DNA of 48,117 nt, counting the filler, from Jimgerdemannia flammicorona (taxonomy: Eukaryota), in NCBI GenBank assembly GCA_003990765.1. It is 2 parts of 2 records of this genome, joined end to end, with 100 filler letters (N's around TTAATTAATTAA, not from the genome) between each part and the next. Parts side by side here need not be neighbours in the genome. Positions count along the whole stretch, not along the records: positions 24,110 to 48,117 come from RBNJ01001035.1; 1 more part is not named here. One strand, written 5' to 3'. How positions within the stretch are numbered: position 1 is the first letter of the stretch; each line of letters begins with the position of its first letter. Shown one piece after another: positions 1,841-42,534 of this stretch. The position numbers and the translations under genes were made by a program. A model generated the notes under the pieces. It was not told the origin of the DNA and searched no databases. It saw only the letters and a program-made list of their open reading frames with translations.

Positions 1841-1920
1841 ATTGTTATTCGCTGGACACCAAAAACGTTGTAGAAAGTGTTGTCTGAGTCTTGTGTAACC
1901 TGAATGTTACCGGAGAAAGA
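1..1920 (-). mobile_element. L1/Tx1-like LINE copy A (5' end and ORF1), young and CpG-rich, runs off the window
   Basis: 5' end reads TCTTTCTCCGGTAACATTCAGGTTACACAA on the minus strand, nearly the same as the 5' end of copy B. ORF1 is colinear with ORF1 of copies B, C and D. Confidence 0.85.
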
Positions 1921-2032
1921 TGTGCCACCACCCTTTCCTTGTCAACCTCATACTCCTTCTCCTCCAGAAGAATTGCAAGCACATTCCCCTTCAGAGCTGC
2001 CACTACTCTATCACCATGCAGGATCCATTCCC
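1921..2032 (-). mobile_element. Short ORF1 fragment of LINE copy C trapped between copies A and B
   Basis: Encodes WILHGDRVVAALKGNVLAILLEEKEYEVDKE. This matches QILQGDGVMMVLKAEILVVYLEEEGYEVDKE in copy B and continues the copy C frame that breaks at ...ILHG near 7895. Confidence 0.7.
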
Positions 2033-2110
2033 TCTCTCTGGTACCATTCAGGTTACACAACCTTTGGAAGGCACTTATAATATCGTTTTTAGAGAAAAGA
2101 GACTAGCAAC

Positions 2111-4123: not shown

Positions 4124-4153
4124 AGATCAACTGATAACAAAACATACTTCATT

Positions 4154-7100
4154 ATGAACAGTACAACCAACATTTTTTCTTTGAATATGAATGGGTTATG
4201 GAGCACTGTTAGATATAGGAACATTTTTACTTGGTTAAAGAGATTGGAGGCTGATCTCTTCCTCATACAGGATATCAGGTGTGAGGATGACTCTGATAGG
4301 ATGGAATGGTCAAAGGAATGGGGAGGTATGGCAATTTGGAAAGACAAGGTTGGAATTCTGGTTCAGAAGGGCAGAGGGGAGATATGAGATGTGAGGAACT
4401 GGGGGGAGAGGCTGGTCTGGGGTGAGTGGATTCATGTGGGCTGGGAGCCAGTTACAGTTGGCTCCTGTTACTGCTCTGCCATCTGGAGAGAGTATGTCAA
4501 TTGGGTGAAGGGTCTTCAGGAGAGTGGGATCCTTATAGAGGCTGGAGTGGATGTGCTTGGGGGAGATTTCAATATGGTTTGGGATATACTGATAGATAGA
4601 ACCAATGAAGGACAGGGTGCTGAGAGCAGGAGTGGGGGACTGGTGATATGAGAGGAAGTAGAAAGACTTAGTGTACTGGTAGATGCTGGTAGGGAGTATT
4701 GGGGGGATAGAAGGGTTTATATGCATTGGGCTCAGGGCCTGGGGACTAGGATCGACTGGATTCTGACAGCTGGCTGCTGGGGACAAGATGTCTGGAAGTC
4801 ACTAGAGATGGAGTGGTGCCCATGGTCGGATCACTGGGGCCTTCTGGGACAGGGGTGCTTTGGGGGAAATGGGGATGGGCCTGGACATTGGTGCCTAAAT
4901 TCCTCTTTGTTAGATAACAAGTCTCAGTGGAATAAGTGGGCTAAAAACATTTAGCTGAGGGTGGAGAACTGGTGACATGAGGGCACTTCAATTGAGGTTT
5001 GGTAGATGAGGATGAAAGAGTTGGCCAGGATTTACTGGAGTGAGGCTGGCAAGGAGGCAGGGAAGCAGAGAAGGCATAGAGTGCAGTGGGCTTCTACTAG
5101 ATTGACTAGGCTTCTGGAGGAGTGGGCAAGACTAGCAATATTGGAAGGCGAAGATGATTGGAGAGTCTTGAGGGTGAAGATGGAGGTTGGGGAACTACAA
5201 CAGGTGCTGAAGGAAGAGGAAGAGGCAAGGGTGCAAAGCTTGGTGGTATGGCTTCATTGATAGGTACTAGAGGAAGGGGAGAGGCCTTCCAAGTTTCTCA
5301 TGAGGGCCCTTAGGGCAAGGGTACAGCAGCAGTGGAAAGGGGTACTTGACTCAGATGGTGTGCTAGTGCATGAGGTGCAGGGCATTCTTGGATCATTGAA
5401 GGAGCGATGGAGTGGATTGTAGAGTGAGGAGGAGGGTGGGGCAGATCCTGATGCCATTGACTGAACATTGAAGGATTAGCACCTGCCATAGGTAGAGGGG
5501 CTAGGTGACCTAGTGATACCTGTAATGGAGGATGAGATCCACCAGGTTCTTGTCATGATGACTCCAGGTATGGCACCTGGGGAGGATGATCTGCCCTGGA
5601 ACTTCTGGAAGCAAATGGTTGGAGTCCCAGGTGTGATAGGTGAGATGATGGCATTGTGTGACTCTATACTACAGACAGGGAGATGGGTGGGGGAGCAGGA
5701 CCTTGGGCTGGTGATGCTGCTCTATAAGAACAAAGAAAGGCATTCGGATTGGAAGAACTGGCAGCCAATAATGTTGCTAGATATGGACAGAAAGTTGGTG
5801 ACCAAGGTGGTGATTACAAGGCTACAGAAAATGGCCCAGCAAGTTGTGGGTATTGAACAGAGAGGATTCATGGGTGGTCAACTCATAAGAGATGGCACAG
5901 CCTGGGTATATGGAGTTATTGAAGGGGCTCGAGCCTGTGGACTGAATGGGCATCTAGTCTTCTTGGACTAGGAGAAGGCTTATGACTGGGTGTGATGAGT
6001 CTGGCTGGTGAAGGTACTGATAGAATAGGGGTGCCATGCGAATTTCGGACAGCAATGGTCAGCCTACTAGAAGGGAGTAGGGCTGCAATCATGTGTAATG
6101 GACATAGAGGGGTAGCATCCCCCCTGGGTAGAGGAGTGCCCCAGGGGGACCCACTGTCCCCTATTTTGTATGCCCTTTTCCTGGAACCTTTAATGGACAG
6201 AATTAGGCAGAGGATAGTAGGGCTCTCTATCTATGAAATTGGGTGGAAAGTTGGGCCCTTTGTGGATGACATAGTTGTTGGTTTAAGATCAATTACTGAT
6301 ATAGAGGAGCTCAAGAAGATAGTGGAGTGGTATGAGGAGAACTCTGGGGGTAAGTTGAATTGGCACAAGTGTGAAACAATGGTGCTAGGCAATGGACTGG
6401 TGGGAGGAGAAGTTATAGGAACAATCGTCCCCACCAGTGAGGCAGTGCGGTACTTGAGCATCTATTTGTCAGTCTATGGATTGGTTCTGTCCAGGCTTTG
6501 GTGGGAGCAGAGGATTGGCATTTGGGAGGAGGACCTGTGGGGTTGGGGGGGAAGGCACTTTTCTCTGGCAGGGCAGGTCTTGATCTTGAATGTATATTGG
6601 TTGCCAAAGCTGTAGTATTTGGCATATTACCTGGATTTCCCAGCCTGGGTAGTGAAGAGATTGTTGAAGGTGGCAAAGGGATGGATTTGGGTGGGCAGAT
6701 GGAGTCAGATTGGTTGGGAGACCTTATCTCTACCAGTGGCGAGAGGTGGTCTTGAGCTGGTGGACTTTCCCAAATGACTTCACTGCTTGAGGGCATGGTG
6801 GCTAAAGAGGGCAGTGGAGTTGTGAGGAGGAGGTTGGGTTCCCCTACTGTAGAAGATCTGGGAGAGGCAGGTATCACCAAGAGACTTGACTGGTAATCTC
6901 CTCTCACTGGTTGGACTTTGGAATACTGGACTATTGTGATATAAAGAATTCTGGTAGGGGATAGCAGAGGGGGCACACTGCATTGATATTTGCTGGCAGG
7001 GGAATGAGGGGGAGGTGACTTGGGACCCGGCAATGTGGAGATGAGATAGTATACTGCTGGGTGGCATTCCTTTAATTGAGTTCAACATTGGTGATGGGAT

Positions 7101-7806
7101 GGAATGCTAAAGGGGTCTAGGCCAGGATCTGTGGCCTAGCAGTTGATAAGGAGTTGGAATTGGAGAAGAGTGGAACTGGCATGGTGTTTGGACCTGGAGT
7201 GCCACGGTGTGTAAGTGGATGCCACCAAAGTACTGGGTGGTTTGGTAGTGCATGCTGCAGAGGAATATAATGCTCAACTTCCACTCAGGGCATCTTATTA
7301 TAGGGGGTTACTTTAACTGTGAGGAGTGCCATAATATAGGGCAGGAAGGGGGCTTTGTACAGATGCCAGAACATTGGCTAGGAGAGTGTGAGGTGTTGGG
7401 GGACTTTTGGCGGGCTATCAGGGAACACTTGGGGGTGTGGTGTAGGAGAGGTGAAGTACAGGAGAGGTGGGAGGACTTGAGGGATTGATTGGTAGAGGGG
7501 GTAGGAAAGGAATGGCTTATCTTAGGCTGGGTGGTGGCCATTTGGATGGGGCTGGCCAGTCACTGGCTATTTGTTTTTGAGGATGGAAGGAGGCAGGGCT
7601 TGGAGTGCCAGTTGTTGTGGTGGCAGAGTCTTATGAAAGACACCTTGATGGGCTGGTGGCTTGGTTGGGGGCTGCAGGGTGGTCAGAGGCACCACTTGGT
7701 GGAGAAAATCTGTGGACAGAGTGGTGGGAGAGTTGGAGTTGTTGGGGAGAGAGTGATCTTTATTTATAGGATGGTGGGGAGGGGCCCCCCTATGGGGATT
7801 GGGTAG
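4154..7806 (+). pseudogene. LINE ORF2 of copy B: APE endonuclease, reverse transcriptase and C-terminal Cys/His motif
   Basis: APE motifs SLNMNGL, LIQD, GGDFN, RIDWIL, SDH. RT motifs APGEDDL, NWQPIMLL, EQRGF, GVPQGDPLSP, FVDD. C-terminal CEEC...EHWLGEC. Confidence 0.92.
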
Positions 7807-7894
7807 TAGGTAGTGATATTGTATACTTATTCATAGACTGGTAATAAAGGGGGAGTCCAAGTGACTATAAAAAAAAAAAAAAAAAAAAAAAAAA

Positions 7895-9671
7895 TCTCCA
7901 TGCAGAATCATGCCCAATACTCCTCACTCATCATGCTCAGGTCTACTTCTCCCAACTCCTCAGCTATAAAGTCATTTATCATTCAGTGCATCCACAGTAG
8001 ATTCCTCACTTCCTTCCCTCTAGGCATTGCTGGCCTTTCAGTATCCAGTATTGTGATATCAGCTCAGCACTTACAGACTTATCCCACTTCTCCTCTGGGA
8101 CATCCACCAGCTTGTCCTTGCCAACTGCCACTATCTGACCCCCTTTTGCCACATCAGGGACTCCAAAGTGTACTTGCTGGGTACCCTGCATCAGCACATT
8201 CTCTGCCACCCCTCTCTTTACAGCTGGGCCCCTTCTGACAAGAGGGGGAATGTTATCCAAATCCTGCTCCCAGACTTCAAATGTACTATCTGCATAAGGA
8301 TCCTTGCTTGGCATCTTCCTAGTCCCCTCCTGGCCCTCCTCCACATCCCCTCCTCCTTTATTAGTCCAGACACTAGCTTTAGCCCCCCCAGACTCCTCAG
8401 CCCTACCCACATTCTTCTTTGTCTCTTCTTTTATACTTACCAATAGCTCCCTCTGCCTCTTGCACCCCTGGGCCCTCTTCCACTGCCTCTTGTCAGTGTG
8501 GATATGTTTTCCCTCTACAATCTCCAAAAGCATTAACTCTATATACCTCCTCCAAGCCTTTGCCCTCCTCTCTACTGCTCCACTCATCTCCTCAAGAGCT
8601 TCCAACAGATCCTCCTCCTCCTCCTCACTCCCTTTCACCCTCAACACCCTGTAAATGAAGGCTCTCCACATTATTACTGATGGCCAGTCACTCATTTTCC
8701 CTGTAGCCTCCCTCTCAGCCAGCCTAATCCTGATATCAACATTGCTATTCCTGAAAGTAATCCCCTCCCACAACTGAAACCCAATATTGATCACATCACT
8801 ATACTCTACCATCACCTCCTCCACCCTCCACCTAGTCTCCACTATCATCACCATAGGCACTCCCTTTACCAGCAACTGGACCACTCTGGGGTCCCACTCT
8901 AAACACTATACTATAGGGACCACCACCTCTCCTACTGCTACTCCAGTCTTCAATGCTTCCTCCAGTGGGCCTGCCTTCTCAAAGCCCACCTCAAACTCCT
9001 TCAGACCCTTCAGGAAATTCACCAAGATGGCCCCAGCCATTTGCTTTGAGATAATTTCCAGCACTATTCTCACCATCACTGCTAAGCCCCAGAAGTACAG
9101 AGTCACTGCAAACTGAGATCAACTTCTTGAGTAATAGTACCACTGCTAGCCCCATTACACCATTCACTAGGTTCCCCTTTCTCTTTGGGCCCATCTGTCC
9201 AGCCCTATCTCAATAGTCACATCTGGATTTTTTTCCAGATTCCCAGTCATACCCCCATCAGCAGTCCCACTATTACTCTCAGCAGCTACTCCACTAGCTC
9301 TACCCCCTGCCAGCTGAGGCCCAGTACCTCTAGTATCCCCAACCTTCTGCTTCCCCTTCCCTCCTGCCTGCCCACCCTGAGTTCTCACTGGCCAATCTCA
9401 AGCCCACAGCATGTCCACAAAGCTCCTCCCCTTCTGCCCTCCAGCCTCACCACTAGTACTGCTTCCACTTCCTGAGCTATCCTGCCCACTCAGGCCACCA
9501 AAGGACCCCATCCCAAGTCCATACACTCATCTGACATACTGCTATTCAAAGGCCTCAGGTCCACCTGACCTAGTATGCATATCTGCTTGCTTTCTGGTTG
9601 CCATTGCCTTAGTACCTTTCTCTAATAAACGACTTAAAAGTATGTTGTAAAAGTGTGTGCAACATGAATTG
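7895..9671 (-). mobile_element. LINE copy C (5' end and most of ORF1), decayed and interrupted by copy B
   Basis: 5' motif ATTCATGTTGCACA near 9669-9656 and ATG at ~9604. ORF pieces (NLEKNPDV, EVGFEKAG, VQLLVKGVP) are homologous to ORF1 of A and B. Confidence 0.85.
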
Positions 9672-12600
9672 TGAGCAATTAATCTCAGGCCAACCACTAT
9701 ATCATCTGCAAAGGCCCCAACTTTTCACTCAATTCCAAATACTGAGAATCTCTCTACCTTTAGCCAAATCCTGTCCATCAATGGCTGCAAGGATAATGCA
9801 TACAAAATAAGAGACAGTGGGTCCCTCTGGAGAACATCTCTGCCTAAAGAAAATGCTACCCCCTGATGACTATTGCATATAAGCACTGCCCTACTCCCTT
9901 TCAGTAGGTTAATCATTACCACTCAGAACTACTGAGGGACACCAATCCTATCCAGTATCTTCACCAACCAGACCCATCTGATATAGTCATATACCTTCTT
10001 CTGATCCAGGAAGACTAATCTCCCATCCAGCCCACAGGCTAGAGCCCCTTCAATGATGCCATAAACCTAATCTGTATTATCTCTAATAAGCTGGCCCTCT
10101 ACAAAACCTTGTTGCTCCTCATCCAAAACTTAATGGGTCATCTTCTGCAGTCTTACAACCATCATCTTGATGATCAACTTTCTGGCTATATCCAGAAGCA
10201 TAATAGGTTACCAGTTCTTCCAGTCCTCTCTCCTGCTCTTATCCTTATATAGTAGTACCACCAGCCCCTGATCCTGCTCTCCCACCCACTTCTCTGACTG
10301 TAATAAAGTACCATCAACTCTTCAAGCACTCCAGGACTCTCCCCATCTTCTTCCAGAAGTCCCAGAGCAGACCATCCTCTTCTAGTACTGTGCCTAGTAT
10401 AGTTATAACAAGAACCTGACAAATCTCCTCCTCTTGTACTGGCCAAACCAAGCTGCCAAGCCCATCTACCAGTGATGGGTGCCAATCCTCCAAAGTATGT
10501 TCTAGAGTGGCAGCATCAGCCCCACCCTCCTACTCACTCTACAAACCACTCCACCTCTCCTTTAGTAAGTCTAGAATATCTTAAGGACTATATACCAATA
10601 GCCCATCAGCATCTAGTACCCCCTCCCACCTCTGCCTCACTCTCCTCACCCAAAGGATTCTTGAGAGATACTTAGAGAGCCTCTCTCTCTCCTCTAGCCC
10701 CTGTCAGTGTAGCTATGTAGTCAAACTTCACACTCATGTCTTCTCCTCCTCTCTTAACACCTGTTATTGCTCAGCAATCTCCAGCTTGGCTCACATCAAC
10801 CTCCAGTCCTCTACTCCCTCCAGGGCCAAAAGACCTGCCCAATCTTCCTGAAGCTAGGCCAATCTAACAGAGACCCAGGTTACCTACCTCCTCCTCCATC
10901 TTTCTGCCACTCTGTCAGCCTCACTCTGGTAAACCCTAGCAGTCTCCTTCAACCACACCTATCAAATACCAACTGGGGCACCCTTATGTACCTAACTCTC
11001 CACTTTCTGCTAAATGTCCTTAGCCTAATTGTCCCACAACTCCTTCTCAGCCAACAAAGAGGAATTGAGGTACCAATGTCCAGACCCATCCCCCATACTG
11101 CCCATGCTCTATCAAGTCCAAATGGTGTGACCACAGATACCATTCAACCTCCAGGGACTTCCAGACATTCAGGCCCTAGCAATCAGATATCAGCACTTAG
11201 TCAATTCTAGTCCCCAGACCTCCCACCCAATGGGTATAGACCCTCCTATCTCCCCACATTGCCCTTCCAGTATCTACTAAGGAACAAAGCCACTCCACCT
11301 TCTCTAAGCCCTCCAGACTACCACTCCTGCCTCCTGTATTTTGCTCTCCATCTGTTCTATTCAACTGTCTCAAGTGTACCATATTGAAGTCTTCTCTAAG
11401 TATCTCCACTTTGCCTCTACAAGGACCCCACTATCTAATAGACTATCAATCCACTCTATATACTCACCTCTGACCACAGGGCAGTAGCAATATTCAACCA
11501 CAATTGACTCTCATCCAGGCTGACACCACTCTTCTCAAACAATATAATCTCCCCAGTTCCTGCTTTCACATACTTTCCCTTATCCTTTCTACACTAATAG
11601 CAACTGCCACTCTACTCCATTCCCTCATCCACTTCTATTGATCAATATCCTCCTCATATTACATATTCTATGAAAGAGAGAGATCAGCCTCTAATCTCCT
11701 TAATTAAGTAAAAATATTATGATGTCTCCCAGGCCACCTCAGGCTATTCACATTCAATGAGAAAATGTTGGTTATACTGTTTTATAGGGAATAATGTTAA
11801 TATTGATATATCCTCCTCACAACTCTATATCTGCTCTCTCTCTAGCCAGATTTAATACATATTCAGCAGTAGCCTCAGCCTCCTCAATCTGCTTGGTTTT
11901 CAGTCTAGCCAATAGCTCATTCAATACTACATCATTCTTCAACTATATCTCCTCCCAGTACTCTATGCAAGCCTCTTGCCAAATTTCTAATCTGTGCCTC
12001 AGTTTCAACCAGAAGCCTATATACTTCCTAGATACTGCCACCAACTCTGCTTCCCTTGCAACATTCATCTCATAGCTCTCCTCATTCAGATACACTGCCA
12101 GCACCTTCTTTGCTAGGGCCTCTATAATTCCATTTTTCTACAAAATTCCTGCCCAGTACTTCTTACTGATAACTCATAGGTCCATATCACCCAACTCCTC
12201 TACCACCAAGTTATTCATCATCCAGCACATCCACTGCAAGTCTCTAATCTCCTTGCCCCCAGAAGTTACTGGTTGGTTGGTCCCAAGCATCACAAAGTCT
12301 GCTCTAGCACTTACAGACTCATTTCACTCCTCCTTCCCAACCTCAACCATCTGCCCCCCACTCACTACCTCAGATCTCCAAATCTAATATAGTGAGTCCC
12401 CACTATCTCTACATCCTTACCAGCTATAGACCAGATGTCCCAATCCTTCCTTTCTATATCCTCATCCTCCTCTCACACCTCTAGTATATCATCATTATAG
12501 AGAGTCTGATCCCTCTCCTCCTAGTCTCTACTCATATTCTTCAGTACTCTCCCAACCTCCACCCCTGCCCAGATACTCTCCTTAGCTCTCCCAGTCTCCT

Positions 12601-26835: not shown

Positions 26836-28109
26836 ATGCGCGCGGGGTGGCACAGCGAGTAGGGATGATGGTGGATCCTGAGTTCCACCACCTCCACCAC
26901 CTCACACAGTTTATATAGATCTCTTGCTAGTTACTTCAGACATATATTTCTTCTCTTTTATCTCTTCGTTTCTATATTTCTTGCAATTTATTCCACTGGC
27001 ACGTGGTTGAGACATTTGCGATTGACTTCCTTGTTAGTCCTGCATGCCTTGCAGTTCTGTTTCTCTTATTCTGGCCTTTACGAGCCTCGCATCACTTGTA
27101 CAGATTGCCGCGCCTTGCTCTTGTTCTGTGTTTTGTTTTGTATATCGTCGCTAGTGCATTTGCGGTATTAGAATCTCGCTGAAACGATATCCGAAGAGAG
27201 TGAATATTCCTTGAATGTGTATGCAAACACATACCAGTGTTGATTCAAAACAAGATATAACACGATCGATGCTGAGTGGACAAGTATCTGGAACTATTGT
27301 ATTGTCACAGAATACTGAGTTATCCTATTTCTCGCTAATACGTACATGAAGTGTAGTGGAGATTGAGTGCGAAGACAGATACGGAAATCTATCGTTTCGA
27401 TACATCTGGACGTCGCAATGGGCATGAGCGCAGAAAATCCATCTCTTTTTTTTTTTTTTTTTTTTTTTTGTCTGACCTTGAATTCAATCAAGCATCACAG
27501 TCGGAAAACAGGCACCGTTCATTCCTCCTACTCACACACACTATACCTCATTGCTCTACATAGCTTGGCCTATGATGAGTTTAGACAGCTCGGCGCATGA
27601 CAGCGCATGCCGACACCGCCACCTTGCAGACAGAGCCTGCCCCGTTTCAATTCTCAACACAGCATCTTAAAATGTATGGACGCGAGCTGCCCTGTCCCAA
27701 TGTGCCTCCCGCCAACATCCATTCCCGTGCGCTAAGCACCATCACCCTGAAACAGTGTTAAGAATTGCTTGCTGACCGCTAATTTCAGTCGTCGACATGG
27801 TGTTTATGGGCTCCAGTTGTTCAGAGTGAAAAGAGAATGTATGCATGTAAATAGATATTGTCGGCCCCAATTCTTGGTTCCATCATGGTCACTTTTCTTT
27901 TTCCGAGTTGGGGGAGCTGGAATCTTGATGGCCTCATTCGCTCAAACTTACTATTTGACTTCCCTCCATCCATCACTTGCTCAAACATGTACAAAATTAC
28001 TCTGTACTACATTTGTTGGACTTGAAACGTTAAATCACTACATCAAGGTCCGGTGCTCCGAACGAGATATCCCAACCAACACATCGTCATCTAGTCTATC
28101 GTCACTAAA

Positions 28110-28206
28110 TAGTGTCCCGTCCCATCGCCTCGTCAGAACCGGGACATTTCAAACCGGGACGTCCTGTTGGGACCAGGACGGAACTGGGACATGTCCCGTA
28201 ACGTTG
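28110..28206 (-). mobile_element. Probable DNA-transposon (hAT-like) terminus that truncates the last LRR exon
   Basis: The LRR consensus switches abruptly to CAACGTTACGGGACATGTCCC..., followed by a cluster of GGGAC/GTCCC motifs. Confidence 0.45.
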
Positions 28207-31200
28207 TCAAGGTCGTGTTCTGCTTCAGAACCTCGGCTAGGGTGCGTGCCCCCTCGTCGCTGATGTCGTTCCCTGAACGGATGGGTGAGTGAACGCGCAC
28301 AGATCGTGAGCTTGAATCCATCGCGCAGCTGCACACAATGCTTCATGCAGTTCCGACATACCGTAGAGATTCAGCGTGGTCAAGTTCATGTTCTGCTTCA
28401 GAGACTCACCTAGGGCGCGTGCCCCCTCGTCGCCGATGCTGTTCCCTGAGCATAAAAGGGGATGGGTGAACGAAGACGAGCTTGATTCCATCGGGGGGGG
28501 GGGGGGGGCTATACACAATTCTTTACACAGTTCCGACATACCATAGAGATTAAGCGTGGTCAAGGTCGCGTTCTGCTTCAAAGATTCGGCTAGGGCGCAT
28601 CCCCCCTCGTCGCCGATCCTGTTGTCTGAACATGAACAGGGGAAACAGAGGATGGGTGAGCGAATAGGCACAGATCGTGAGCTTGATTTCATCGCGCAGC
28701 TGCACACAATGCTTCACACAGTTCCAACATACTGTAGAGATCCAGCGTGGTCAAGGTCGTGTTCTGCTTCAGAGACTGGGCTAGGGCGCGTGCCCCCTTG
28801 TCGCGGATATTGTTCACTGAACATAACAGGGAATGGATGAGTGAACACGCACAGATCGTGAGATTAATTCCATCGCACAGCTGCACACAATGCTTCACAC
28901 AGTTCCGACATACATCCAAGGTTCGACGTGGTCAAGGTCGTATTATGCTTCAGACACTCGGCTAGGGCGCATGCACCCTCGTCGCCGATGCTGTTTTCTG
29001 AACATGAACAAGGATGGATGCGCAACACGCAGAGATCGTGAGCTTGATTCCATCTCGCAGCTGTACACAATACTTCAGACATACCGTAGAGATTCAGCGT
29101 GGTCAAGGTCGTGTTCTGCTTCAGAGAATCGGCTATGGCGCGTGCTCCCTCGTCGCCGATGCTGTTCCCTGACCATAGACAGGGGATGGATGAGCGAACA
29201 CGCACAGATCGCGAGTTTGATTCCATCGCGCAGCTGCAAATAATGCTTCACACAATTCCGACATACTTTCGAGATTTAGTGTGGTCAAGGTCGTGTTACA
29301 CTTCAGAGATTCGGTTAGGGCGCGTGCTCCCTCGTGGCTGATGCTGTTGTCTGAATATGAACAGAGGATGGATGAACGAACACGAACAAATCGTGAGCTT
29401 GATTCTATCGCGTAGCTGCACACAATTCTTCACAGTTCCGACATACTTTCAAGATTCAGCATAGTCAAGGTCGTATTCTGCGTCAGAAACTTGGCTAGGG
29501 CGTTTGCCCCCTCGTCGCCAATGCTGTTCACTTAACATGAACAGGAGATGGATGAACAAATAGGCACAGATCGTGAGCTTGATTCCATCGCGCAGCAGCA
29601 CACAATGCTTCACACAGTTCTGACATACATTCGACATTCAGCACGGTCAAGGTAGTGTTCTGCTTCAGAGACTCGGCTAGGGCATGTGCACCCTCGTCGC
29701 CGATCCAGTTCCCTGAACATGAACAGGATATGGATGAGCAAAACACGCACAGATCGTGAGCTTGATTCCATCTCGCAGTTGCACACAATGCTTCACACAG
29801 TTCCGACATACCATAGAGATTCAGCGTCGCCAATGTCGTGTTCTGCTTCAGAGACTCGGCTAGGGCGCGTGCCCCCTCGTGACCGATCATATTGTCTGAA
29901 TATGAACAGGAGATGGATGAGCGAACACGCACGCAGCTGCACAGAATGATTTACACAGTTCCGACATACTTTCGAGATTCAGCGTGATCAAGGTCGTGCA
30001 CAGCCTCAGAGCGGCCGCGAGCAATTTCACGACCTCGAAGTGCCCACAATCCGTGGCATAACGCAGCGGCATCAACCCCTTGTTGTTCTTGGCGTTGGCG
30101 TCCGCCCCCAACTCAGCCACGAGCATCCTCACGACTTTGATGTATCCTCCCTTTGCAGCTATGTGCAGCGGCGTCCATCCGTCGATGTTCTTGGCGTTGG
30201 TGTTCGCCCCGAACTCGGCCACGAGCAGCCTCACGACTTTGACGTACCCCCTCTTCGCAGCCATGTGCAGCGGCGTCCACCCGTCGATTTTCTTGGCGTT
30301 GACGTCCACCCCGAACACGGCTGTGAGTATGAATATGAACTCGACATACCCGTTTTCTGTGGCGTGGTGCATTGGCGTGTTACCATTCTTGTCCTCTACA
30401 TTGGTGTTTGCATTGAATTCGAATACGAGTAATTCGAACACGTTGATGTGACCTTTCTCGGCAGCTAGGTGCAAAGGGGTCCGACCATGCCTGTCCTTCA
30501 ATTCGACGTTGGTGTTGGGTTGATTAAGCAGTGATCGGATCAATTTCACATGACCACCCTCAGCTGCGCGATGTAACAGCGGAAGAGAAAGATCAAACTT
30601 AATTGACAACTTCTTGTTTTTTCTATAACGAGACCAATGATAATATTTATCGTCGTTCTTCTCTACGCCATCGCCCCGCAAATAACAATTTGCAACCTTT
30701 TTTTGTGCTCCTCTGTCGCCAGCCTCTGCAGCTTTCAAGTGCCATTCAAACGCCTTCCTCTTGTCTACGTCAACGCCCCCTACTCCTTCTTCGTAACAAT
30801 CAGCAAGGGTCAGCTGAGCTTCTAAATGTCCATTTACCGCAGCTTTAGTGCACCACTCAATCTGCTTCATTAGATCATTTGCAACGCCGAAACCTACTCC
30901 ATAACATAAGGCGGTATAGAATTGTATCTCCGAATCATACCACATGTCGGAATTTTCGGCATAGCCAAATTGGTGGTTGAGGAAGTCAAGTAATCGAGGA
31001 TGTAGGGTGTAAAACCTTGTGTCTTTCTCCATAAACCTGGGACGCCAGTCACCGAACCTTGAATCGTACTTGAGTTCATTTAGCCAGCTTTGCTGCCAAA
31101 GTTTATGTAAATTGTTCTCTGTAGACGATGCCAATGTAGTGCTATTATCCAAAGCTTTCTTCGCGAGCGTTGCTGAGAAGGGAACCTCAAACAGCTTTAA

Positions 31201-32157
31201 CTGGCCAAGCAATGATTTAAGACCATCATCTAGGTAATCAAAGCTATACTTGATGCAGGTGTCAACCGAATCGTAACGATCTCCAAAATTATCTGTTGCA
31301 CTCCGTAGCCGGTCGCTGAAGTTGCTGATGAATTGGTCAACAGGCTCCATGCAGTTGTTGAAGCTACCTCCAAGAAGACGGATCGATAATGGATGACCGC
31401 CTGCGAGGCGACTAATATTCATTGCATTGTCATTGTTAATGTCATTTAAACGTTGAGAAGCCCATTGTCGAAAAACCTGCATGCCGTCATGTGGTTCTAA
31501 GCCATTCAACTCGACAAATTCTTCATTTGGCCAGCCAAGTGCAATTCTTGATGTTGCGAGAATTTGGATGTTCTTCGATATACGATTGAAAAATCTGAAT
31601 AAAGATATCGCATCCTTTTTGGTCGCTGGGTCTCCTTGTTCGGTTGCGTGTTTGAGATCTTCCATATTGTCAAGATAAACCAGCATATCTCCTCCGCTTT
31701 CTAACTTGGCCATCACTGCATTTTGTCGAATTTTAGGATCTCGAGATGTTTCGATGTCGATGTTGAGAAATCCGGCGATGATTGAGATTACTGAATCAGA
31801 GCTTGGACTTCCAACAAGGGATATCACCAAAACTCTGCCAGAGTTGAAGTTCTTGACCGCTTGAATTGCCAATGCCGTTTTGCCTATTCCGCCGAAACCG
31901 CGAATGGTAATATAGCGAACTTTCTTGTCACTCAGGAGTTTTTCCAATTTTCGGAGCTCTTGCTGACGCCCAAAAAATTCTCCATATGTGTTGACGTTGC
32001 CGAAATCTACCTCCATTGCTGGTTGGTTATCATTACCGACTTTGGTTTGATGAATGGAAAGTATCTTTGTCAGTGAGCGATTTCTATTAGTTCCTCCTGC
32101 TCACATTATTATACCAAAATTTTCGCTCACCTTGCAAAGTATTTGAGAGCCTTTCAT
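28133..32157 (-). CDS. NLR-like protein: STAND (NB-ARC-like) NTPase - Sel1 repeats - ankyrin repeats - RI-like LRRs. Exons 32131-32157, 29970-32064, nine 84-nt exons, 28133-28272
   Basis: Walker A GFGGIGKT, Walker B LVYLDNMED and GHPL; Sel1 AQLTLADCYEEG...AFEWHLKAAEAGDRGAQ; ~6 ANK repeats (GxTPLHxAA); LRR NxIGDEGARALAESLKQNTTLTTLNL. All junctions are GT-AG and keep the frame. May be the 3' part of one gene starting at 35244. Confidence 0.85.
28200..29969 (-). repeat. Tandem array of ~170-190-bp exon+intron units, each with one 84-nt LRR exon
   Basis: Exons 29812-29895, 29629-29712, 29447-29530, 29267-29350, 29085-29168, 28914-28997, 28733-28816, 28542-28625, 28362-28445 and a partial exon from 28272. 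Introns all begin GTATGT and are mutually homologous. Confidence 0.93.
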
Positions 32158-32175: not shown

Positions 32176-35100
32176 TTAGATTGTGTATTCAAATAAGCAG
32201 TTTGATGATGGTATTGTGAGTCTGTATTTCCAATAATCGTGCTCGGGGAATAGAAGAGACTTCAACTCACTGGGAGGAGGTTCTGTCCCAATTATAAAGT
32301 GTGTCTTCTCCAGACCAAATCGCAAAGTCTCCATGGCTTTCTTCATCAAACCTACATTCTTCTCGGTATTTGTGGTAAAACGATCAGCGGGCTCGGTGTT
32401 GGTATGATGCAAACACAGAATGAATGGCGATTTCTTTTCTGTCGCGATCGGTATGACGTGATCCATGCAGAACTTAGGAAAGCTAGCGTGGAGAATTTCG
32501 GATGCTTTGCGTCTAAACACAACCAATCCACCAAATAAAACTTGCTGCTGCACACTGTCCCTTTCAAGTTTGTGACCGCCGGTGCCAGGAATGTCGACAA
32601 TGTCGTAGTATTGTACGCCATAAGTCTTGTTCTTCACTTCGCTATGGGCGTGGTCTTGGATGCTTCGAAGTTGCCATTCGAGCACCATGGAAATTCCTGG
32701 GGTGAAAATCGGTAGTTGAAAAAAAGTGTACAGAAGAGAATCAGAATGACCGCATTTCAATTGCTTACTCACCATGCTTAGATGACTTGGCAACGCCAAT
32801 TACAAACATATCATCATATTCGCCGAGTATCGGCAAACAAAGTCGCAGTTTCATCACAGAATTACACTGTCTCGCGCCTTCCTTAATAGCGACGTGAATT
32901 CTGTATTCATCATCTCTTTTCAACAATAACTTGCTATCACATAGTTGCTGCAGGTTCTCATTACTATAATCGACCCTTTCCGATGACGAACAAGTGTAGT
33001 TGATAAAATAACATAAGAACGCGAGCACCCCTTCTGTGATTGGTCCTGTGAAGAGAGAACACATATAGAGTAGCAGGCGTTTCTTTGTTGAAAGCGCGTT
33101 GATGGTTGGTCGGAAACGGGTTTCGAGGTTTCTATTACCATATGAGCCATCTGTGAGCATTGAGCTGAAATGTTCACGAACGAGTTCCTTAAGTGATACA
33201 CGCTGATGCTGTGGTTTGTTGGTGGCATGGCCAAGGAATTCCAAACACAGTGGATGTCCGTCTACGAGCCTGACGAGGTCATCCATCAACTGCATGGAAC
33301 CTGCCTCCTTCTCCATCCTCCGCCTCACTTGAGTGTCAAGATTTCGAATGAACAACTCGACACCACTGTCAATGTCCAAGTCGGTAAAACCGTCGAGAGG
33401 CATTACGCCTTCCTCTGCTGTCCACCTTAGACGCTGGCTCGATGTCGCAAGGATTCTTACTGGGATCTCTGATATCAACATTATCTTCTGAAGCCAGTTT
33501 ACCAATGCTCCAGCATCCTCATCGTCCACGACTTGTGCGCGCTTCAAGACATCGGCTTGATCGAGGATCAGCAAACAGGTCGGATTGGACGCGAACTTCT
33601 TCGTGATGGCCTGTTCCAACGTCTGAAAGCCATTGCTGAAATCTTCCGGGAACATGACCTGATTCAGGCGCTGAAGGTATTCGATGAACGATATCTCGTG
33701 CGAAGGATCGAATCGCCAAGCGAATATTCCACCGGGGAAGAGATGCGCCATCCGCCTGACCGCATTCTCAGCCAACGCCGTCTTGCCCTGACCGACAATA
33801 CCTTCAATGGTGTACATGGGACAGGTCTGTGTCCCTCTCTTCGCCATACGCCTCAAAACATCTGTTGTCTCGATAAGCTTCTCCTTGCGTCCGCAAAAAA
33901 ATCGTGTGAAGGAGATCTCTTCGAGATTGTGGCGAGGCATGGAGCGTTTGATCTTGGGCTTGCCCTCTTCGCACTTGAACGCGCCATCCTCTTCCCGAAA
34001 CGTGGATGAATAGAGCACTATGGCACCGGGGAAGTAGTTGCGTTGTCGGGTGTCTTTTGGGTCTTTCATGGAGGCGCGCGCTTCCAACATCGCCTTTTCG
34101 ACCATGCATCCGCTAGCAAGGCACTGGTAAAATTTGTCCTCAAACTTGCGGGCGAGGTCGTCCGGCAGAGGACAGTGTGAACCGATAGTGTATGGAATGC
34201 CATTTTCGGCCAGGTCTCGAGCGACATGCCGGGTATCGCAGGCAGACAGAAATGCCAGCCCGCAGATTCATAGTCGTGTCAAGGCGCAACGCGTCCGCGA
34301 AGTCGAGCCCGCCTGTGTCTTGATCTTCAAAGATGAGTGCCCTCGCACCACCGTTCTGCGAGCCGCAGTGTCCCATGAAATGAAGCACCGTGGCCATATA
34401 AGGCTTGCTTCTAAGCAACTCGTACATTTGGTCGACGGTCGGCGGGAACGCGCGCTGTAGTAATACCTTTCGATTGTTTTTCTCATACTCATCACATAAT
34501 GTCTGAAACTGATCCCTCAGATGCAGATCTGGGAATTACTTTGCGTTGGGATCGTTCGGCGGGACGATGGGGTCCGGTACGACCGTGACGATGCGTAGCG
34601 GAAGTAGCGGAAGTTTCGAAGGCTGAGGCTCCTTAGATTTGAGGAGGGGCATCGAAAATAGCAAAAGGAGCGAAAATAGCGAAAGTAGCCAAAAATTCGA
34701 AGGCTGAGGCTCCTTCGATTTAAGGAGGGGCGAAAATAGCGAAAATAGCGAAAATAGCGAAAATAGTAGCGAAAATAGCGAAAATAGCGAAAATAGCGAA
34801 AGTGGCCAAAAATTAGATGGCTGAGGCCCCCTCGGTTTGTGCAGGCGTACGAATATGCATTGGCTGGTCAAATATGCATTGTTGCCCCAAGCGTACTCCC
34901 AGGGGATGTATGTCGAGGTCGTAGTCACCATTGAGATCTAGTAGGATCCGACGCTTTGAAAGAGGCCGTAACATATCCTGCAGCAGACGCCAGGCGGGGC
35001 TGGATTCCTTTTTCGAAAAGAGGGCCCTGAACAATTTCTTGCCATATTTTCTGAGATCTGCAGAGTTGGGGTTTGAGTCGAAGACATCGACTGCGATAGA

Positions 35101-35244
35101 TCGGCCCTCTTGGATTTCTTGAAGGTTGAAGGAATGGCTTTCAACGAGCTTAGCCAGGTAAACATCGGCGGCGGAAACCTTTACATGGACTCTGGTTTCT
35201 TTGGGGTTGTCACTGTTGGTATATTTTGACAAGGATATCAGCAT
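32176..35244 (-). pseudogene. CHAT (caspase-like) protease - STAND NTPase - Ras/Roc-like degenerate domain; disrupted (exons 32773-35244, 32176-32696)
   Basis: CHAT motifs IPWEY, VLHFMGHCG and LAFLSAC...GIPYTIG...DDLARKFEDKFY. STAND motifs GIVGQGKT, LLILDQAD, GHPL. Lesions: +1 frameshift near 34910, TAA at 34536-34538, +1 frameshift near 34260. Confidence 0.85.
34604..34830 (-). repeat. In-frame tandem duplication and 9-bp (TCGCTATTT)n expansion inside the CHAT domain
   Basis: Three PQPS(N/K) units separated by (SLF)n runs; CGAAAATAG is repeated ~7 times on the plus strand. Confidence 0.85.
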
Positions 35245-35663
35245 GTTTGTGTGTGTTCTCCAGTTTGACGCAATCGGTGGCTTGTTTCCAAGGAAACCTT
35301 AATTATAAATAAAGCCTTTATGTATATACCTCTTGTTGAATATCTCCTTTTATGGGATAAGAGAATTGACTGCCTGCCAGGCACTCTCGTTGCTAGTATA
35401 TACGTAGGCCATACTGTTGGTCGAACACTTTGTAAAACATCTTCTTGATTAATCGGACGAAAGCCTCGTTCACAGGTCATGCTTGTCTAACGAGCCTGTG
35501 TTCGGCACAGCTCGGCTTCACTCACTCGGTTTCCCCTTTACAAGAAAAAAACATATGGATTCGCAATTAAATAAGGACTTAGTTATTAGTGTTATAATAT
35601 TCCTAAGTCACTTTTAATCGCCTCGACCTCACTTCTATCACATCGTGCAATGACCAGAGAATT

Positions 35664-38780: not shown

Positions 38781-41700
38781 CTACAACCTCGACTCCACAA
38801 CCACAACCTTCTCAGGCCTTCTGGACCCTTTATTGACTTCGAACGCCTCGGTCAGCACGTCCCCGACGGTTTTTACGAACACAAACTCAATCTGGTCGCG
38901 CACAGCAGCGGGTACGTCACCCATCACGTCCTTCTTATTACGGAAGGGCACGATGATACGGTGGATTCCAGCGCGGTGCGCTGCGATCACTTTCTCCTTG
39001 ATGCCGCCCACGGGCAGCACGTTGCCCCGCAGCGTGATCTCGCCCGTCATTGCCGTTGTTGGTGGGACGCGGCGTCCGGAGAGGAGGGAGACCAAGGCGG
39101 TGACAATGGTGATACCTGGGATGTGGAGAAAAGTTAATTTAAGGGTGGCAATCAATTGCATGCACACCTAAAAACAAAAAAAAAATTATGCTGTGTTCTC
39201 ACCTGCTGACGGCCCGTCCTTGGGTACGGATCCCGACGGGACGTGCACGTGGATATCCACATTTTCGAGCACATTCGAGTTTGCGGAGGCGGTCAGGCGA
39301 AGCGTATAGGCATGTGTCTTGACCCAAGACATGGCAATCTGCGCCGACTCCTTGATCACGTCGCCGAGCTTGCCTGGTTATGGGAAAGGTGACGGCAAAA
39401 ATAGAAGAAAGAGGATACTTGAGAGTTATGTCGCTAACACATCATGCTCTTATGTGACAACCATTGTGAGGAACCAGGGAATGTTCCACATCGAGACAAA
39501 GCTACGTTGACCCACCTGTCAGCTGTAAGTTCCCCTTGCCCGGCATCTGCGATGCCTCGATAAACAAGATCCCGCCGCTCCCGCTAGAGGTGTACGCGAG
39601 GCCCGTGACTATACCGGGAATCGATTCACGCTGCGCGATCTCGTCGTCGAACTTCTCAATCTGCAAAAGAAGGGTTGGGTGCGTATGAATTAAAAGGAGG
39701 GGAAAGCGATTAGTGAACATCTCATCTATAAACTCAACCCTAGAGACCAGAGGAAAAAAACGACCCTTTGAAAGACTAAAACAAGACTCACCCCCAAGAT
39801 GTCCTCCAAATCCTTAACCTTCACCTCTGGCCTATACTTATCCTCCCTCCCCTGCTCCCTCAGCTCAGCTACCTCGACACATTTAGCCCTAACCACCGCC
39901 GCGATAGCCCTCTCGAGCCCCCTGACGCCGCTTTCCCTTGTATACCCCTCTGCGATTCTGAGCACGACGTCGTCTGCCATGACGACGTCACCCTTCTTAA
40001 GTCCGTGCTCTAAGACCTGCTTAGGGACCAGATGGCTGCGGGCGATATGCAGCTTTTCCTCGAACGTGTAGCCGGGCAACGGGATCACCTCCATGCGGTC
40101 CAGCAGCGCCGGCGGGATCGTGTCCAGCGTGTTCGCCGTTGCGATGAATACCACGTGCGACAGGTCGAAGGGAAGATTCAGGTAGTGATCCGTGAACGTA
40201 TTGTTCTGCTCCGGGTCCAGCACCTCCAGGAGGGCTGCCGTCGGGTCGCCGTAGTGCGAGGAAGAGGCGGTTTTGTCGATCTCGTCTTTGATGAATGGAG
40301 AAAATTGAAGAGGTGTGTCAAAATCCGACAGTATGTTGAGAAAACCACTTACAATTTGTACGGAGAGTTACGAATAAAAAAATCTCGAAACACAGATAAA
40401 GGAGAGAATTCTCACCAAGCAAGAACACCGGATTGTTCACTCCACACTTCTTCAACCCATGTATCACCAGCCCAGGCAACGCGCCCACATAGGTCCGCCT
40501 ATGCCCGCGGATATCGGCCTCGTCGCGCACGCCGCCCAGCGAAATGCGGTGGAACCGGCGCGAGAGGGCCGTGGCGATGGACTTACCTAGAGAGGTCTTG
40601 CCAACGCCCGGCTGCAAGAGAGAGAGTGCGTGTGTGCAAATGGGAATAGGCGTGAGCGATATTTGGATAGGGTGCATGCGAAAATGGTTTAAACCTGAGG
40701 CTGTTACGTACGGGGCCGACGAAGCAAATGATAGGCGCCTTGAGGTCGCCCTTGACCTTGACCACGGACAAATACTCGAGGATGCGCTTCTTGACGATAT
40801 CGAGGCTGAGAAATTGCAAGAATGATAAGTCAGATTAATCGGCAAGGCAAAAAAAATATTAGCCGGCTCACTAAAAAGAACCCGGCTCGCCACAATCGCC
40901 TCACCCAAACGCACCCATAATGATCGGCCTCCAGCTGCTCTCTGGCCCTCCTAATATCCAGCACGTCCTCGCTGCTCTTACTCCACGGAAGTTCGGCGAC
41001 GGTCTCGAGATACGTCCTGACAACGGACCACTCGGCGGTGGACGGATGCAATCGCTTGAGCCGCTTGAGCTCACGCTGCGACGCTGCGGCGGCCTCCTCG
41101 GGCAAGTTCGCGTCCGCCAGCCGCCGGCCCAGGTCCGTGATCTCGTCTTCCTCTGTATTGCCAGAGCTGTTCAGATTGTCGTCAGAATCCTTCTCGCCGA
41201 GCTCCTCTTTGATGGCGTTGAGCTTTGATGGGTGGGCGGGGGGCGGAGGAGGGAATTTGGAGAAGTTATGGGGGTTTAATGCAAATATATGTGACCCGCG
41301 ACTGCTGAACTGATGATTAATATTTACCTGCTGTCGGAGATAGAATTCCCGCTGCTTTTTGCTCAGCTTGTCCTCGATGGTTGAGTGTACCTGTTGAGAA
41401 ATCTTGAGGACCTGACAGGGCACGCAAATTCGGGCGAATGAGAAAATGTATTAAGAACAGCAGGATGAGGTGAGTGCATAGTATCATTTGAATGTCATCC
41501 CCAGGAAAAGATTCCGCACGACAAAATTCTACACTCAGCTCTTTCCAAAACCATGACCATCGCATACTCACATGCAACTGCCTCGTTATCCACTCGCCCG
41601 CCTTCTCCAGCCTTGCCCCAAGTTCGGTGCTCTCAAGCATGCTCAACCGTTCGTCAAAGCTCGCGTCAATGACGGTGACGAGCAGGTTAGCCAGGGTAGA

Positions 41701-42534
41701 AGGGGGCGCCTGTTCCACCAACCGCTGCAACTGCGCTGTCAACGCGTCCGGCAGCTGCAGCTCCTTCATTTTAACGAGGAACTCTCGTGCTAGTGCCCGG
41801 AACCGCAGAACCTGGTCGTGGATCTCTGCGGCCTTGGCCGTCGAAACCTCAAGCGGCTCGGGGTAGTGTGTAACCGAAGCGATGAGATAGGGTGTCTCCT
41901 GGATGATACGGTCGACACGAAAGCGGGAAAGGCCTGAGGAATGTGGAGGTTGAAGAGATTTAGCAATATTAGATTGAATGGATTTTGTTAGGTAAATATA
42001 ATCGAACAAAGAAATTACGCTTCTGAGAATTATTTCGCACTCACCCTCTACAAATATGGTAAATCCTCCGAACCCGACCCGCTCGATCCGCATGATTCTC
42101 GCTGCACATCCAAACGTGAACAAATCCTCGCTGGAGGTCGGCGGCTCGCCTGGCGCGGCGTCTAGCTGGTCATCGGACTTCTTAGTCTTGTCGGCCCGCC
42201 TAGGCCGCTGAGGGTGCAGCACAGGCACCTGCGGGGCGGTGGTGGGCTCCGCTTGGGTCGAATTGTCGTCATCCCCGGTGCTGGAGGGACCGTTGGTGAT
42301 GACCCTGTCGTTCTCGCTGCCTTGGAGGGTAGAGGGGGCGGTTTTACGGATGATAGGGATGCAACCGACAATAGGAAAGTTTTTTGGGTCAAATATCTTG
42401 TGGAGCCTTCGTAGCAGGAAGATGGAGTCCCTGTTGCGTAGGACAATCTTTGAGACAACGCCAGGAAGGAGGACCTTCTTGTTGTGGAGTGGGACGAGGG
42501 GGAGCGAGGTGGGTATGGTAACAGGGTTATGCAT
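38781..42534 (-). CDS. LONP2: Peroxisomal Lon protease, 10 exons: 42045-42534, 41572-41933, 41328-41411, 40915-41222, 40712-40805, 40416-40611, 39792-40285, 39516-39660, 39203-39373, 38781-39115
   Basis: LON N-domain, Walker A GPPGVGKTS, Walker B LLDEIDK, catalytic KDGPSAG and GGIKEK, and a C-terminal PTS1 (-SRL). All introns are GT-AG and the frame is kept. Confidence 0.95.

Follow-up and report, generated by a model that had tools for sequence, protein, structure and literature searches.

The window analyzed here is a stretch of 48,117 nucleotides (nt) from the Jimgerdemannia flammicorona assembly GCA_003990765.1, made of two parts joined by 100 filler letters, in which positions 24,110 to 48,117 come from record RBNJ01001035.1. 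On its minus strand it harbors a gene predicted to encode a receptor-like protein with an NB-ARC NTPase and a C-terminal sensor of leucine-rich repeats (LRRs), and these repeats lie one to an exon in a tandem array of similar exon+intron units. The array is correctly described as such and lies well beyond chance. With a probability of about 0.72, the gene comes from the Endogonales, is intact and NLR-like (STAND NTPase), and contains introns, and its LRR sensor was built by amplification of a 180-nt cassette and diverged later, with one patch of codons changing faster than the rest.

A tandem unit of 180 nt in 9.6 copies with 77% matches was detected at 28202-29932 by Tandem Repeats Finder. 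The coding strand of the array is the minus strand, on which a 737-codon open frame (29887-32100) extends into it and ten GTATGT donors are spaced one unit apart. Exon borders were placed by setting the acceptor 84 nt upstream of each following donor. With these borders, all nine complete cassette exons are exactly 84 nt long and of phase 1-1, the first two bases and the last base of each being parts of split codons, and all ten introns have a GTATGT donor and an AG acceptor, with lengths from intron 1 to intron 10 of 74, 99, 98, 96, 98, 87, 97, 107, 96, and 89 nt. The gene is laid out as follows.

28202..29932, strand not assigned: tandem exon+intron array with a 180-nt unit (Tandem Repeats Finder; blastn with one unit as the query recovers all ten copies).
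29970..32016, minus strand: exon 1, from the first ATG of the frame 29887-32100 (ORF list; Pfam domains), with the NB-ARC NTPase, Sel1 repeats, about five ankyrin repeats, and the first LRR beta-strand (TLITLNLE); its last base is the first of a split codon.
29896..29969, minus strand: intron 1, 74 nt, GTATGT...CAG, a shortened version of the repeated intron.
28362..29895, minus strand: nine 84-nt phase 1-1 LRR exons and the eight introns between them.
29895-29812, 29712-29629, 29530-29447, 29350-29267, and 29168-29085, minus strand: cassette exons 1-5 of the nine.
28997-28914, 28816-28733, 28625-28542, and 28445-28362, minus strand: cassette exons 6-9 of the nine.
28493..28508, minus strand: 16 consecutive C (G when read on the plus strand) in place of about 20 nt of intron 9.
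28273..28361, minus strand: intron 10, 89 nt, GTATGT...CAG.
28133..28272, minus strand: last exon, in which the tenth LRR unit runs up to TTLTTL and is followed by 21 codons outside the repeat and by the stop codon TGA (28135-28133).

The joined exons give 3027 nt of open frame, closed by this TGA, and the predicted product of about 980 residues, counted from the first ATG (32016), has the domain order NB-ARC, Sel1, ankyrin repeats, and about 10.5 ribonuclease inhibitor (RI)-type LRRs of 28 residues. Since the nine exons are free of indels while the introns differ in length by up to 33 nt, the frame appears to have been kept by selection, and we infer that this copy is spliced as laid out above. 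The original prediction, made from the sequence of the window, had described nine complete 84-nt exons in phase 1-1, which the donor and acceptor placement and the open spliced frame bear out, and all ten junction residues that it listed (N, G, L, N, R, E, L, N, G, and G, with their flanks) were reproduced exactly. The array and the gene reach slightly past its interval of 28200..29970: the last exon continues to 28133, and the first LRR strand ends the large exon at 29970. A blastn search with one unit revealed no extra, stray, or inverted LRR units elsewhere in the window on either strand.

Reading the array unspliced was ruled out, as the length of six of the ten introns is not divisible by three. 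The lengths of introns 2, 6, and 9 (99, 87, and 96 nt) are so divisible, and these introns contain no in-frame stop (open reading frames 28237-28713, 28864-29247, and 29528-29950, minus strand); if retained, they would add 29-33 residues with the frame unbroken. Intron 4 (96 nt) contains an in-frame stop. The 16-C run in intron 9 may be a genuine homopolymer or may have arisen in the assembly.

Each cassette exon encodes a 28-residue unit that consists of NSIGDEGARALAESLKQNTTLTTLNLY and one junction residue, and the ten units stand in register. The LRR_6 profile, which represents RI-type repeats, scored 23.5 bits (28237-28713) and 23.1 bits (29528-29950) on unspliced two-unit reading frames, with a cut-off of 23.4, and a single unit scored 17.2 bits, below that cut-off. 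Sequence matches in the PDB were to RI-like LRR proteins of 9y6s (E = 5.8e-13), a 5irm chain (5.5e-6), ribonuclease inhibitor 1dfj (0.013), and also 5irl. Because unspliced translations were queried, the profile and PDB scores understate the match. The repeat length of 28-29 residues and the sequence matches to the family profile and to RI-like structures assign the repeats to the RI type.

Toward the amino-terminus, the NB-ARC profile matched with 37.4 bits (Pfam cut-off 23.5), the best stretch covering only profile positions 2-43 of 248; Sel1 (52.5 bits) and Ank_2 (185.7 bits) were the other Pfam matches. The translation contains GFGGIGKT and GHPLSIRLLG, of which we take the former to be the P-loop and GHPLS to be the GxP (GLPL-like) motif; GHPLS is conserved in the family alignment. 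An NB-ARC match above threshold with both of these motifs, followed C-terminally by Sel1, ankyrin, and LRR repeats, is what is found in NB-ARC NTPases of the NLR kind. NACHT was not among the 14 Pfam families listed for the protein, and neither a ROC nor a COR domain was present. The ankyrin repeats form a second internally conserved repeat type in this protein, with a 102-nt (34-codon) tandem period and 80-84% matches at 30063-30351 on the minus strand.

The large exon has seven close relatives (P0001-P0007; 45-57% identity), all from Logan or JGI contigs. They differ greatly in the number of ankyrin repeats, two of them (P0001 and P0002) carrying many more than the window gene, and two of the seven close by running into a GT intron directly behind an LxL strand, as does the reading frame in the window. 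A metagenome scan yielded 54 loci, of which a single one (L001) was close (53% identity over 1138 nt); the other 53 (L002-L054), which are nearest to the NB-ARC part outside its own small family, matched that part with 26-38% identity and were without LRR arrays. When a two-unit LRR reading frame was compared with 1.84 billion representative proteins, 6308 matched with E values of 0.001 or lower and 37 with values of 1e-30 or lower. Among the named LRR matches are proteins from Mortierella alpina and Lobosporangium transversale that are annotated as hypothetical or 'RNI-like' and, from the chytrid Gonapodya, a protein with a kinase, Sel1, and LRRs. By Pfam, none of the 27 distinct top LRR matches had the combination NB-ARC+Sel1+Ank+LRR_6; four had NACHT+LRR_6, two Sel1+LRR_6, and one Ank+LRR_6. 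Arrays of RI-type LRRs recur with Sel1 (plus a kinase in P0256) or ankyrin repeats in P0256, P0175, and P0219, which suggests that RI-type LRR, Sel1, and ankyrin repeats have been repeatedly combined.

The divergence among the units separates the introns from the exons. Mean pairwise identity was 85.2% for the introns (45 pairs) and 79.7% for the nine exons (36 pairs; range 74-92%), and it was thus observed that the introns are more alike than the exons that they separate. The introns are therefore homologous and whole exon+intron units were amplified, as had been proposed. Per-site diversity (pi) was 0.203 in the exons vs. 0.154 in the intron cores (one-sided permutation p = 0.049). Four hot codons, with a joint mean pi of 0.50, hold the whole of the exon excess: with codons 0, 2, 9, and 27 removed, exon pi falls to 0.153, equal to that of the introns (permutation p = 0.97). 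Codon 0 is the split codon itself, codon 27 the one that precedes it, and codon 2 lies two codons further on, so that three of the four flank the splice junction; the fourth is codon 9.

Codon diversity reached 0.69 at the split codon, 0.50 at the preceding codon, and 0.43 two codons after it, compared with the intron mean of 0.154. Codons 0 and 27 exceed the maximum (0.48) of 96 three-base intron windows, and in 50,000 resamplings of intron columns neither the observed mean of the top three codons nor the observed maximum was ever reached. The three hottest codons lie inside one window of four codons (chance p = 0.026). Nonsynonymous differences per nonsynonymous site (pN), calculated by the Nei-Gojobori method, were 0.78, 0.48, 0.42, and 0.41 at the four hot codons, the value of 0.78 being that of codon 0; for the whole exon, pN was 0.181, the synonymous counterpart (pS) was 0.272, and pN/pS was 0.67. 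The expected clustering of variation around the junction is hence found, with an excess of nonsynonymous change there in place of an even spread, and so is the near-constant helix. From the LxxLxLxxNxI register, which we assume here, the hot codons are placed in the loop after the beta-strand. The exon border lies one base into the second x codon of LxLxxN.

In both exons and introns, more than half of the variable columns are singletons (29 of 50 and 25 of 45, respectively). The units differ from the consensus by 5-13 bases, and the distances among exons are uncorrelated with those among the flanking introns (Mantel r = 0.03 and -0.18). Together with the divergence of about 15%, the singletons and the uncorrelated distances give a star-like pattern, as expected from one burst of amplification followed by independent divergence of the units. 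The amplification had been called recent, and this part of the original prediction does not hold, given an intron divergence of about 15% that consists mostly of singletons and the lack of correlation between exon and intron distances. Ongoing homogenisation of the units is not indicated. A higher-order period of three units (N-G-L) or of two units (362 nt) was unsupported by the identity matrix or the Mantel tests. RNA genes borne by the introns were considered as a cause of intron conservation and were dismissed, since Rfam gave two sub-threshold snoRNA matches, both outside the introns; tRNA genes were likewise not found.

The position of the hot spot was also compared with that in five other RI-type LRR proteins with conserved internal repeats, from Mortierella, Lobosporangium, one other eukaryote, and two further proteins. 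In all five, the two residues before the conserved Asn ranked among the three most variable positions, with an entropy of 2.2-3.0 bits. The hot spot thus appears to be a property of the repeat class and not of the splice junction, and the intron would merely happen to sit inside it. The junction region is variable, as had been claimed, but its variability is not special to the junction. The same comparison speaks for relaxed constraint only, i.e., for loop residues of RI-type repeats that drift in the absence of any selection for diversity and of any diversification system, as these two positions are among the three most variable in proteins of unrelated contexts and the overall pN/pS of 0.67 is below 1. 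Drift cannot outpace the neutral rate, however, and codon 0, with its pi of 0.69 and pN of 0.78, far exceeds the intron pi of 0.154 and the pS of 0.27. This explanation would be rescued if the introns were constrained or if the junction types were older than the amplification; we consider it improbable.

The split codon allows a further distinction. Across the intron, the first two bases of an exon can be predicted from the last base of the exon before it (A|AC and G|GG each occur three times and T|TG twice), with a mutual information of 1.20 bits (p = 0.009), and no such association exists between the start and the end of one exon (0.92 bits, p = 0.22). Possible new combinations occur at two of the ten junctions only, A|GG (R) and G|AA (E), which are adjacent and lie around exon 5. 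Since the two halves are associated across the intron and the two ends of an exon are not, the intron and the variable codons on both of its sides appear to move as one module. Exchange, where it occurred, would then have broken in the conserved exon cores.

This pattern bears directly on active exon shuffling, in which unequal crossing-over or gene conversion within the homologous introns would swap exons within and between paralogues and so generate new residues at the split codon. The introns do offer long homologous tracts with 85% identity, the junctions on either side of exon 5 carry combinations unseen elsewhere, exons 5 and 9 are 92% identical while their flanking introns are just 81-83% identical, and two sequencing runs, described below, contain many related sequences with very different junction dipeptides. 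The matched halves at eight of the ten split codons nevertheless argue against it, as do the unassociated exon ends, the star-like and uncorrelated distances with mostly singleton variants, and a unit divergence of about 15%, which speaks against current homogenisation. The likeness of exons 5 and 9 is explained by their closeness to the consensus, from which they differ by 5 and 6 bases, respectively; both are simply the exons nearest to it, so that their likeness says little about gene conversion between them. Inverted or stray LRR units in the introns or the rest of the window, of the kind present in Ectocarpus, are also missing. Active shuffling is therefore held to be unlikely, and the claim that reshuffling of the split codon creates new residues is largely contradicted within this array (p = 0.009 for the matched halves). 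Diversification of receptors is plausible for the gene family over evolutionary time, whereas novelty at the split codon by reshuffling within the array is the part of the proposal that is mostly lost.

Two public sequencing runs from one organism share 0.16 and 0.12, respectively, of the sampled words of the stretch. The run type (RNA) is a guess, the summed word depth is not read as a copy number, and contigs were placed at an identity of at least 92%. On the 4.5-kb stretch of the gene, 921 and 1407 contigs were placed, 385 and 512 of which fitted two places; so many distinct contigs on one gene indicate that both samples contain many related sequences. Contigs with 0-3 differences cover the 3' end (27818-28274) and parts of the ankyrin and NB-ARC regions. 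The letters between the two sides of the contig joints were decoded by hand, the frames being checked against the window coordinates. Eleven of the twelve rows listed read as in-frame, intron-less LRR-LRR junctions at the predicted exon borders, with ten distinct dipeptides at the two hot positions (FH, ES, GW, SW, YN, KG, YG, KR, WD, and FM), and the twelfth (29325 to 29508) was a jump within an exon that could not be interpreted. Loose contig ends that resemble other versions of the intron were also present.

Alternative splicing, the second mode envisaged in the original prediction, would skip or choose among the phase 1-1 exons and provide one individual with isoforms that vary in repeat number and junction residues. 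All nine exons preserve the frame, and alternative splicing of such a layout has been described for human NLRP3 (PMC6642158) and for the ROCO genes of Ectocarpus (PMC11378527), going by the excerpted text of these two sources. The contig joints, in contrast, bear junction letters other than those of the window gene and so point to other copies and not to exon skipping here, and the ten identical strong GTATGT donors with their uniform acceptors include no obvious weak site. We regard isoform production by this gene as rather unlikely.

The preferred explanation, amplification of a cassette and later divergence, can be formulated as follows. The LRR sensor would have grown by tandem amplification of a 180-nt cassette composed of an 84-nt phase-1 exon and an intron of about 96 nt. 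Selection would have held all exons at 84 nt and kept the splice sites intact, so that indels would have built up in the introns only, and the units would then have diverged from one another, each independently of the rest, by about 15%. Three to four codons, which form a patch, would have diverged three to four times faster: the two x ahead of the conserved Asn, the x that follows it, and one position where the helix begins. This fits selection that favors diversity on the loop at the end of the beta-strand, which we infer to be the cause of the hot spot. The intron lies inside this fast patch and is inherited with it; unequal crossing-over in the exon cores would therefore shift whole patches and would not create junction codons. 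By analogy with NB-ARC/NACHT receptors, the repeats may bind a ligand or guard a target and thereby release oligomerisation of the NB-ARC domain. Diversification would proceed in the germline across a multigene family and would not be somatic.

Several observations weigh against this explanation. The selection test has a sample of 9-10 related units, with the introns as the neutral yardstick, and the pS of 0.27 exceeds the intron pi of 0.154, so that the introns themselves may evolve under constraint or have been homogenised in part; the junction types, too, could be old variants that were kept and not newly selected ones. Plain excision of the introns of this gene was seen in none of the 15 joints considered out of 89. 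The intron-less junctions could be spliced transcripts of paralogues or intron-less copies in DNA, and the joints, which have short sides (21-42 nt) at the 92% threshold, may come from repeats or other organisms. No NCBI-named close relative of the large exon was found among proteins of 375-1194 residues, and it may be that the receptor gene is unannotated, merged into a longer model, or treated as a repeat. No N-terminal effector domain was recognized by Pfam before the P-loop, which lies about 45 residues past the first ATG, and a small upstream exon is possible. The array ends abruptly in a GGGAC-rich stretch, and the gene may be truncated.

Some of these observations also fit a dead or dying copy, i.e., a truncated pseudogene or repeat relic that has lost its expression: the missing effector domain, the abrupt end of the array in non-repeat sequence with its cluster of GGGAC/GTCCC, and the large exon without a named match, to which the homopolymer in intron 9 and an apparent frameshift in the upstream neighbour can be added. 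Such a copy would hardly retain an open frame of 3027 nt, nine exons without a stop or indel despite a divergence of about 20%, and ten of ten intact splice-site pairs, and contigs of one of the two runs (X2) match the 3' end and the ankyrin part with 0 differences. A dead copy is accordingly considered very unlikely. At the end of the array, seven GGGAC/GTCCC pentamers lie within 80 nt (28114-28193), including the palindrome GGGACATGTCCC. Nowhere else in the window, which has 80 such sites in 48 kb, do they lie so densely, and the cluster coincides with the array end and the stop codon; it may mark where an inserted element that cut the array short comes to its end.

The fungal origin of the gene is indicated by its surroundings, in which two further genes lie on the same strand.

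32176..34535, minus strand: upstream CHAT-NB-ARC gene, with CHAT (caspase-like) protease motifs (Pfam CHAT, 32.9 bits), a second NB-ARC-like NTPase, and a C-terminal part without an assigned domain.
38784-42534, minus strand: Lon protease gene with at least five introns.

The AAA+ reading frame of Lon is 98% identical to two NCBI proteins of Jimgerdemannia flammicorona, 91% identical to a protein of Endogone sp., and at most 73% identical to those of other Mucoromycota. Runs of N occur only at 24010-24109, and the receptor gene and Lon share an uninterrupted stretch of 28-42.6 kb. The Lon match and the gap-free stretch together place the receptor gene in an Endogonales fungus, most likely Jimgerdemannia flammicorona and otherwise a very close relative. 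The Lon gene and the upstream neighbour have canonical GT-AG introns of about 76-150 nt, and the array introns are thus of ordinary size for this genome. Compared with the Lon protein of the window, P0053, which is one of the two Jimgerdemannia flammicorona proteins, was 100% identical over residues 1-322 and 64-99% identical in later pieces, the later mismatches probably reflecting differences between gene models at intron borders.

The CHAT-NB-ARC neighbour is 27% identical to the receptor NB-ARC over 305 amino acids (E = 2e-9). The gene has a 76-nt phase-1 intron (32772-32697), and its stop codon (32178-32176) lies 159 nt before the receptor ATG. The wider CHAT-NB-ARC region (32176-35298, minus strand) is read in two frames that overlap at about 34140-34267, the His-bearing CHAT part lying in one and the Cys-bearing part in the other, which must stem from a frameshift, a short intron that went unrecognised, or an error in sequencing. 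At 34596-34801, the region is interrupted by tandem repeats of 9-81 nt. The combination of CHAT with NB-ARC in this gene is also seen in weaker protein matches of the receptor (P0011, P0024, and P0034), which join CHAT, NB-ARC, and TPR and one of which is named Chloroflexota; a bacterial origin of the NB-ARC lineage is conceivable. As a speculation, the receptor and its CHAT-NB-ARC neighbour could act as a sensor and executioner pair, the effector being provided in trans.

At the other end of the window, positions 1-14000 show a GC skew of about -0.49, then of +0.39 to +0.47, and then of -0.43 to -0.45, with switches near 2000 and 8000, and C or G makes up 33-46% of the bases on one strand. 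A reverse-transcriptase fragment (RVT_1) is present at 5986-6615 on the plus strand (E = 6e-16). This part of the window is probably composed of nested retroelements with skewed composition.

The analogues named in the original prediction, the LRR exons of animal NLRs and of brown-algal ROCO genes, are real ones (PMC6642158; PMC3341825; PMC11378527), as far as the excerpted text of these sources goes. Most human NOD/NLRC genes encode one 28-residue LRR per strictly frame-preserving exon, with the exon border at a fixed place within the beta-sheet, and NLRP3 is alternatively spliced in its LRR region, according to excerpts of Hoss et al. (2019; PMC6642158). The fungal gene is similar in having one 28-residue RI-type LRR per frame-preserving exon, a STAND NTPase with a C-terminal LRR sensor, and an exon border at a fixed place in the beta-strand region, a likeness that refers to the region and not to the exact codon or phase. 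It differs in having NB-ARC instead of NACHT, in the Sel1 and ankyrin repeats between the NTPase and the LRRs, in its short introns (74-107 nt) that are homologous to one another, and in its host, a fungus.

For the brown-algal ROCO genes, 72-nt phase-2 LRR exons, shuffling, positive selection, and alternative transcripts are described in the portions consulted of Zambounis et al. (2012; PMC3341825) and Teng et al. (2024; PMC11378527). With the algal genes as portrayed there, the fungal gene shares one LRR per symmetrical exon, long arrays, membership in a multigene family, candidacy as immune receptors, and hypervariable positions on the presumed binding face. Unlike the fungal exons of 84 nt and phase 1, the algal ones encode an LRR class of 24 residues, and the algal LRRs lie N-terminal to a ROC-COR GTPase. 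The algal introns hold stray and inverted LRR copies, in the same passages of PMC3341825, and the fungal window holds none.

Among fungal NLRs, those with highly conserved WD40, TPR, or ankyrin repeats have been discussed, in the excerpt available of PMC10197012, with recombination among the repeats proposed as the source of the repertoire. The gene described here may resemble these in combining a STAND receptor with similar C-terminal repeats (exon identity of 80% on average) and a few hypervariable positions, presumably on the surface; in contrast to them, as that excerpt presents them, with WD40, TPR, or ankyrin repeats within a single exon and mostly in Dikarya, it has one exon per LRR. 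The RNI-like LRR proteins P0173 (Mortierella alpina), P0178 (Lobosporangium transversale), and P0256 (Gonapodya sp.) share the 28-residue consensus NSIGDxGAxALxEALKxNxTLTxLxL, and in them, too, the pair of residues ahead of the Asn varies more than most other positions; Sel1 and LRR_6 occur together in P0256 and P0175. The Mortierella and Lobosporangium proteins show no NB-ARC similarity to the receptor gene (best E = 0.17 and 0.66). An LRR-bearing NLR of the Endogonales or of other fungi was not described in the literature searched, and the supplementary tables of one kingdom-wide NLR census that included LRR profiles (PMC12258605) could list one.

The layout of cassette exons is already known; what appears to be new is the fungal host, the combination of NB-ARC, Sel1, ankyrin repeats, and LRRs, and the homologous introns. 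Passages of reviews state that fungal NLRs rely on WD40, TPR, or ankyrin repeats and that LRRs are missing from them (PMC5658179; PMC10197012), and in one comparative study NACHT/NB-ARC proteins were not found in the Mucoromycotina proteomes (PMC7928374). A much bolder and doubtful view would be that the Endogonales hold a large undescribed family of NB-ARC/RI-type-LRR receptors built from 84-nt cassettes of the NOD/NLRC style, in which recombination and exon skipping give a repertoire of binding surfaces, the cassette with its intron is ancestral to the opisthokonts, and the CHAT-NB-ARC neighbour is the executioner. Were such a large family to exist, it would overturn both the view that fungal NLRs lack LRRs and the view that Mucoromycotina lack NLRs. 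An intact NB-ARC-Sel1-ankyrin-LRR gene in an ectomycorrhizal, early-diverging fungus would in itself extend the LRR-NLR architecture to fungi. The near-identical intron beside each exon provides a built-in neutral yardstick for selection on repeat surfaces, and the comparison with the NOD/NLRC genes makes it testable whether the one-LRR-per-exon cassette of animals is ancient or has evolved repeatedly.

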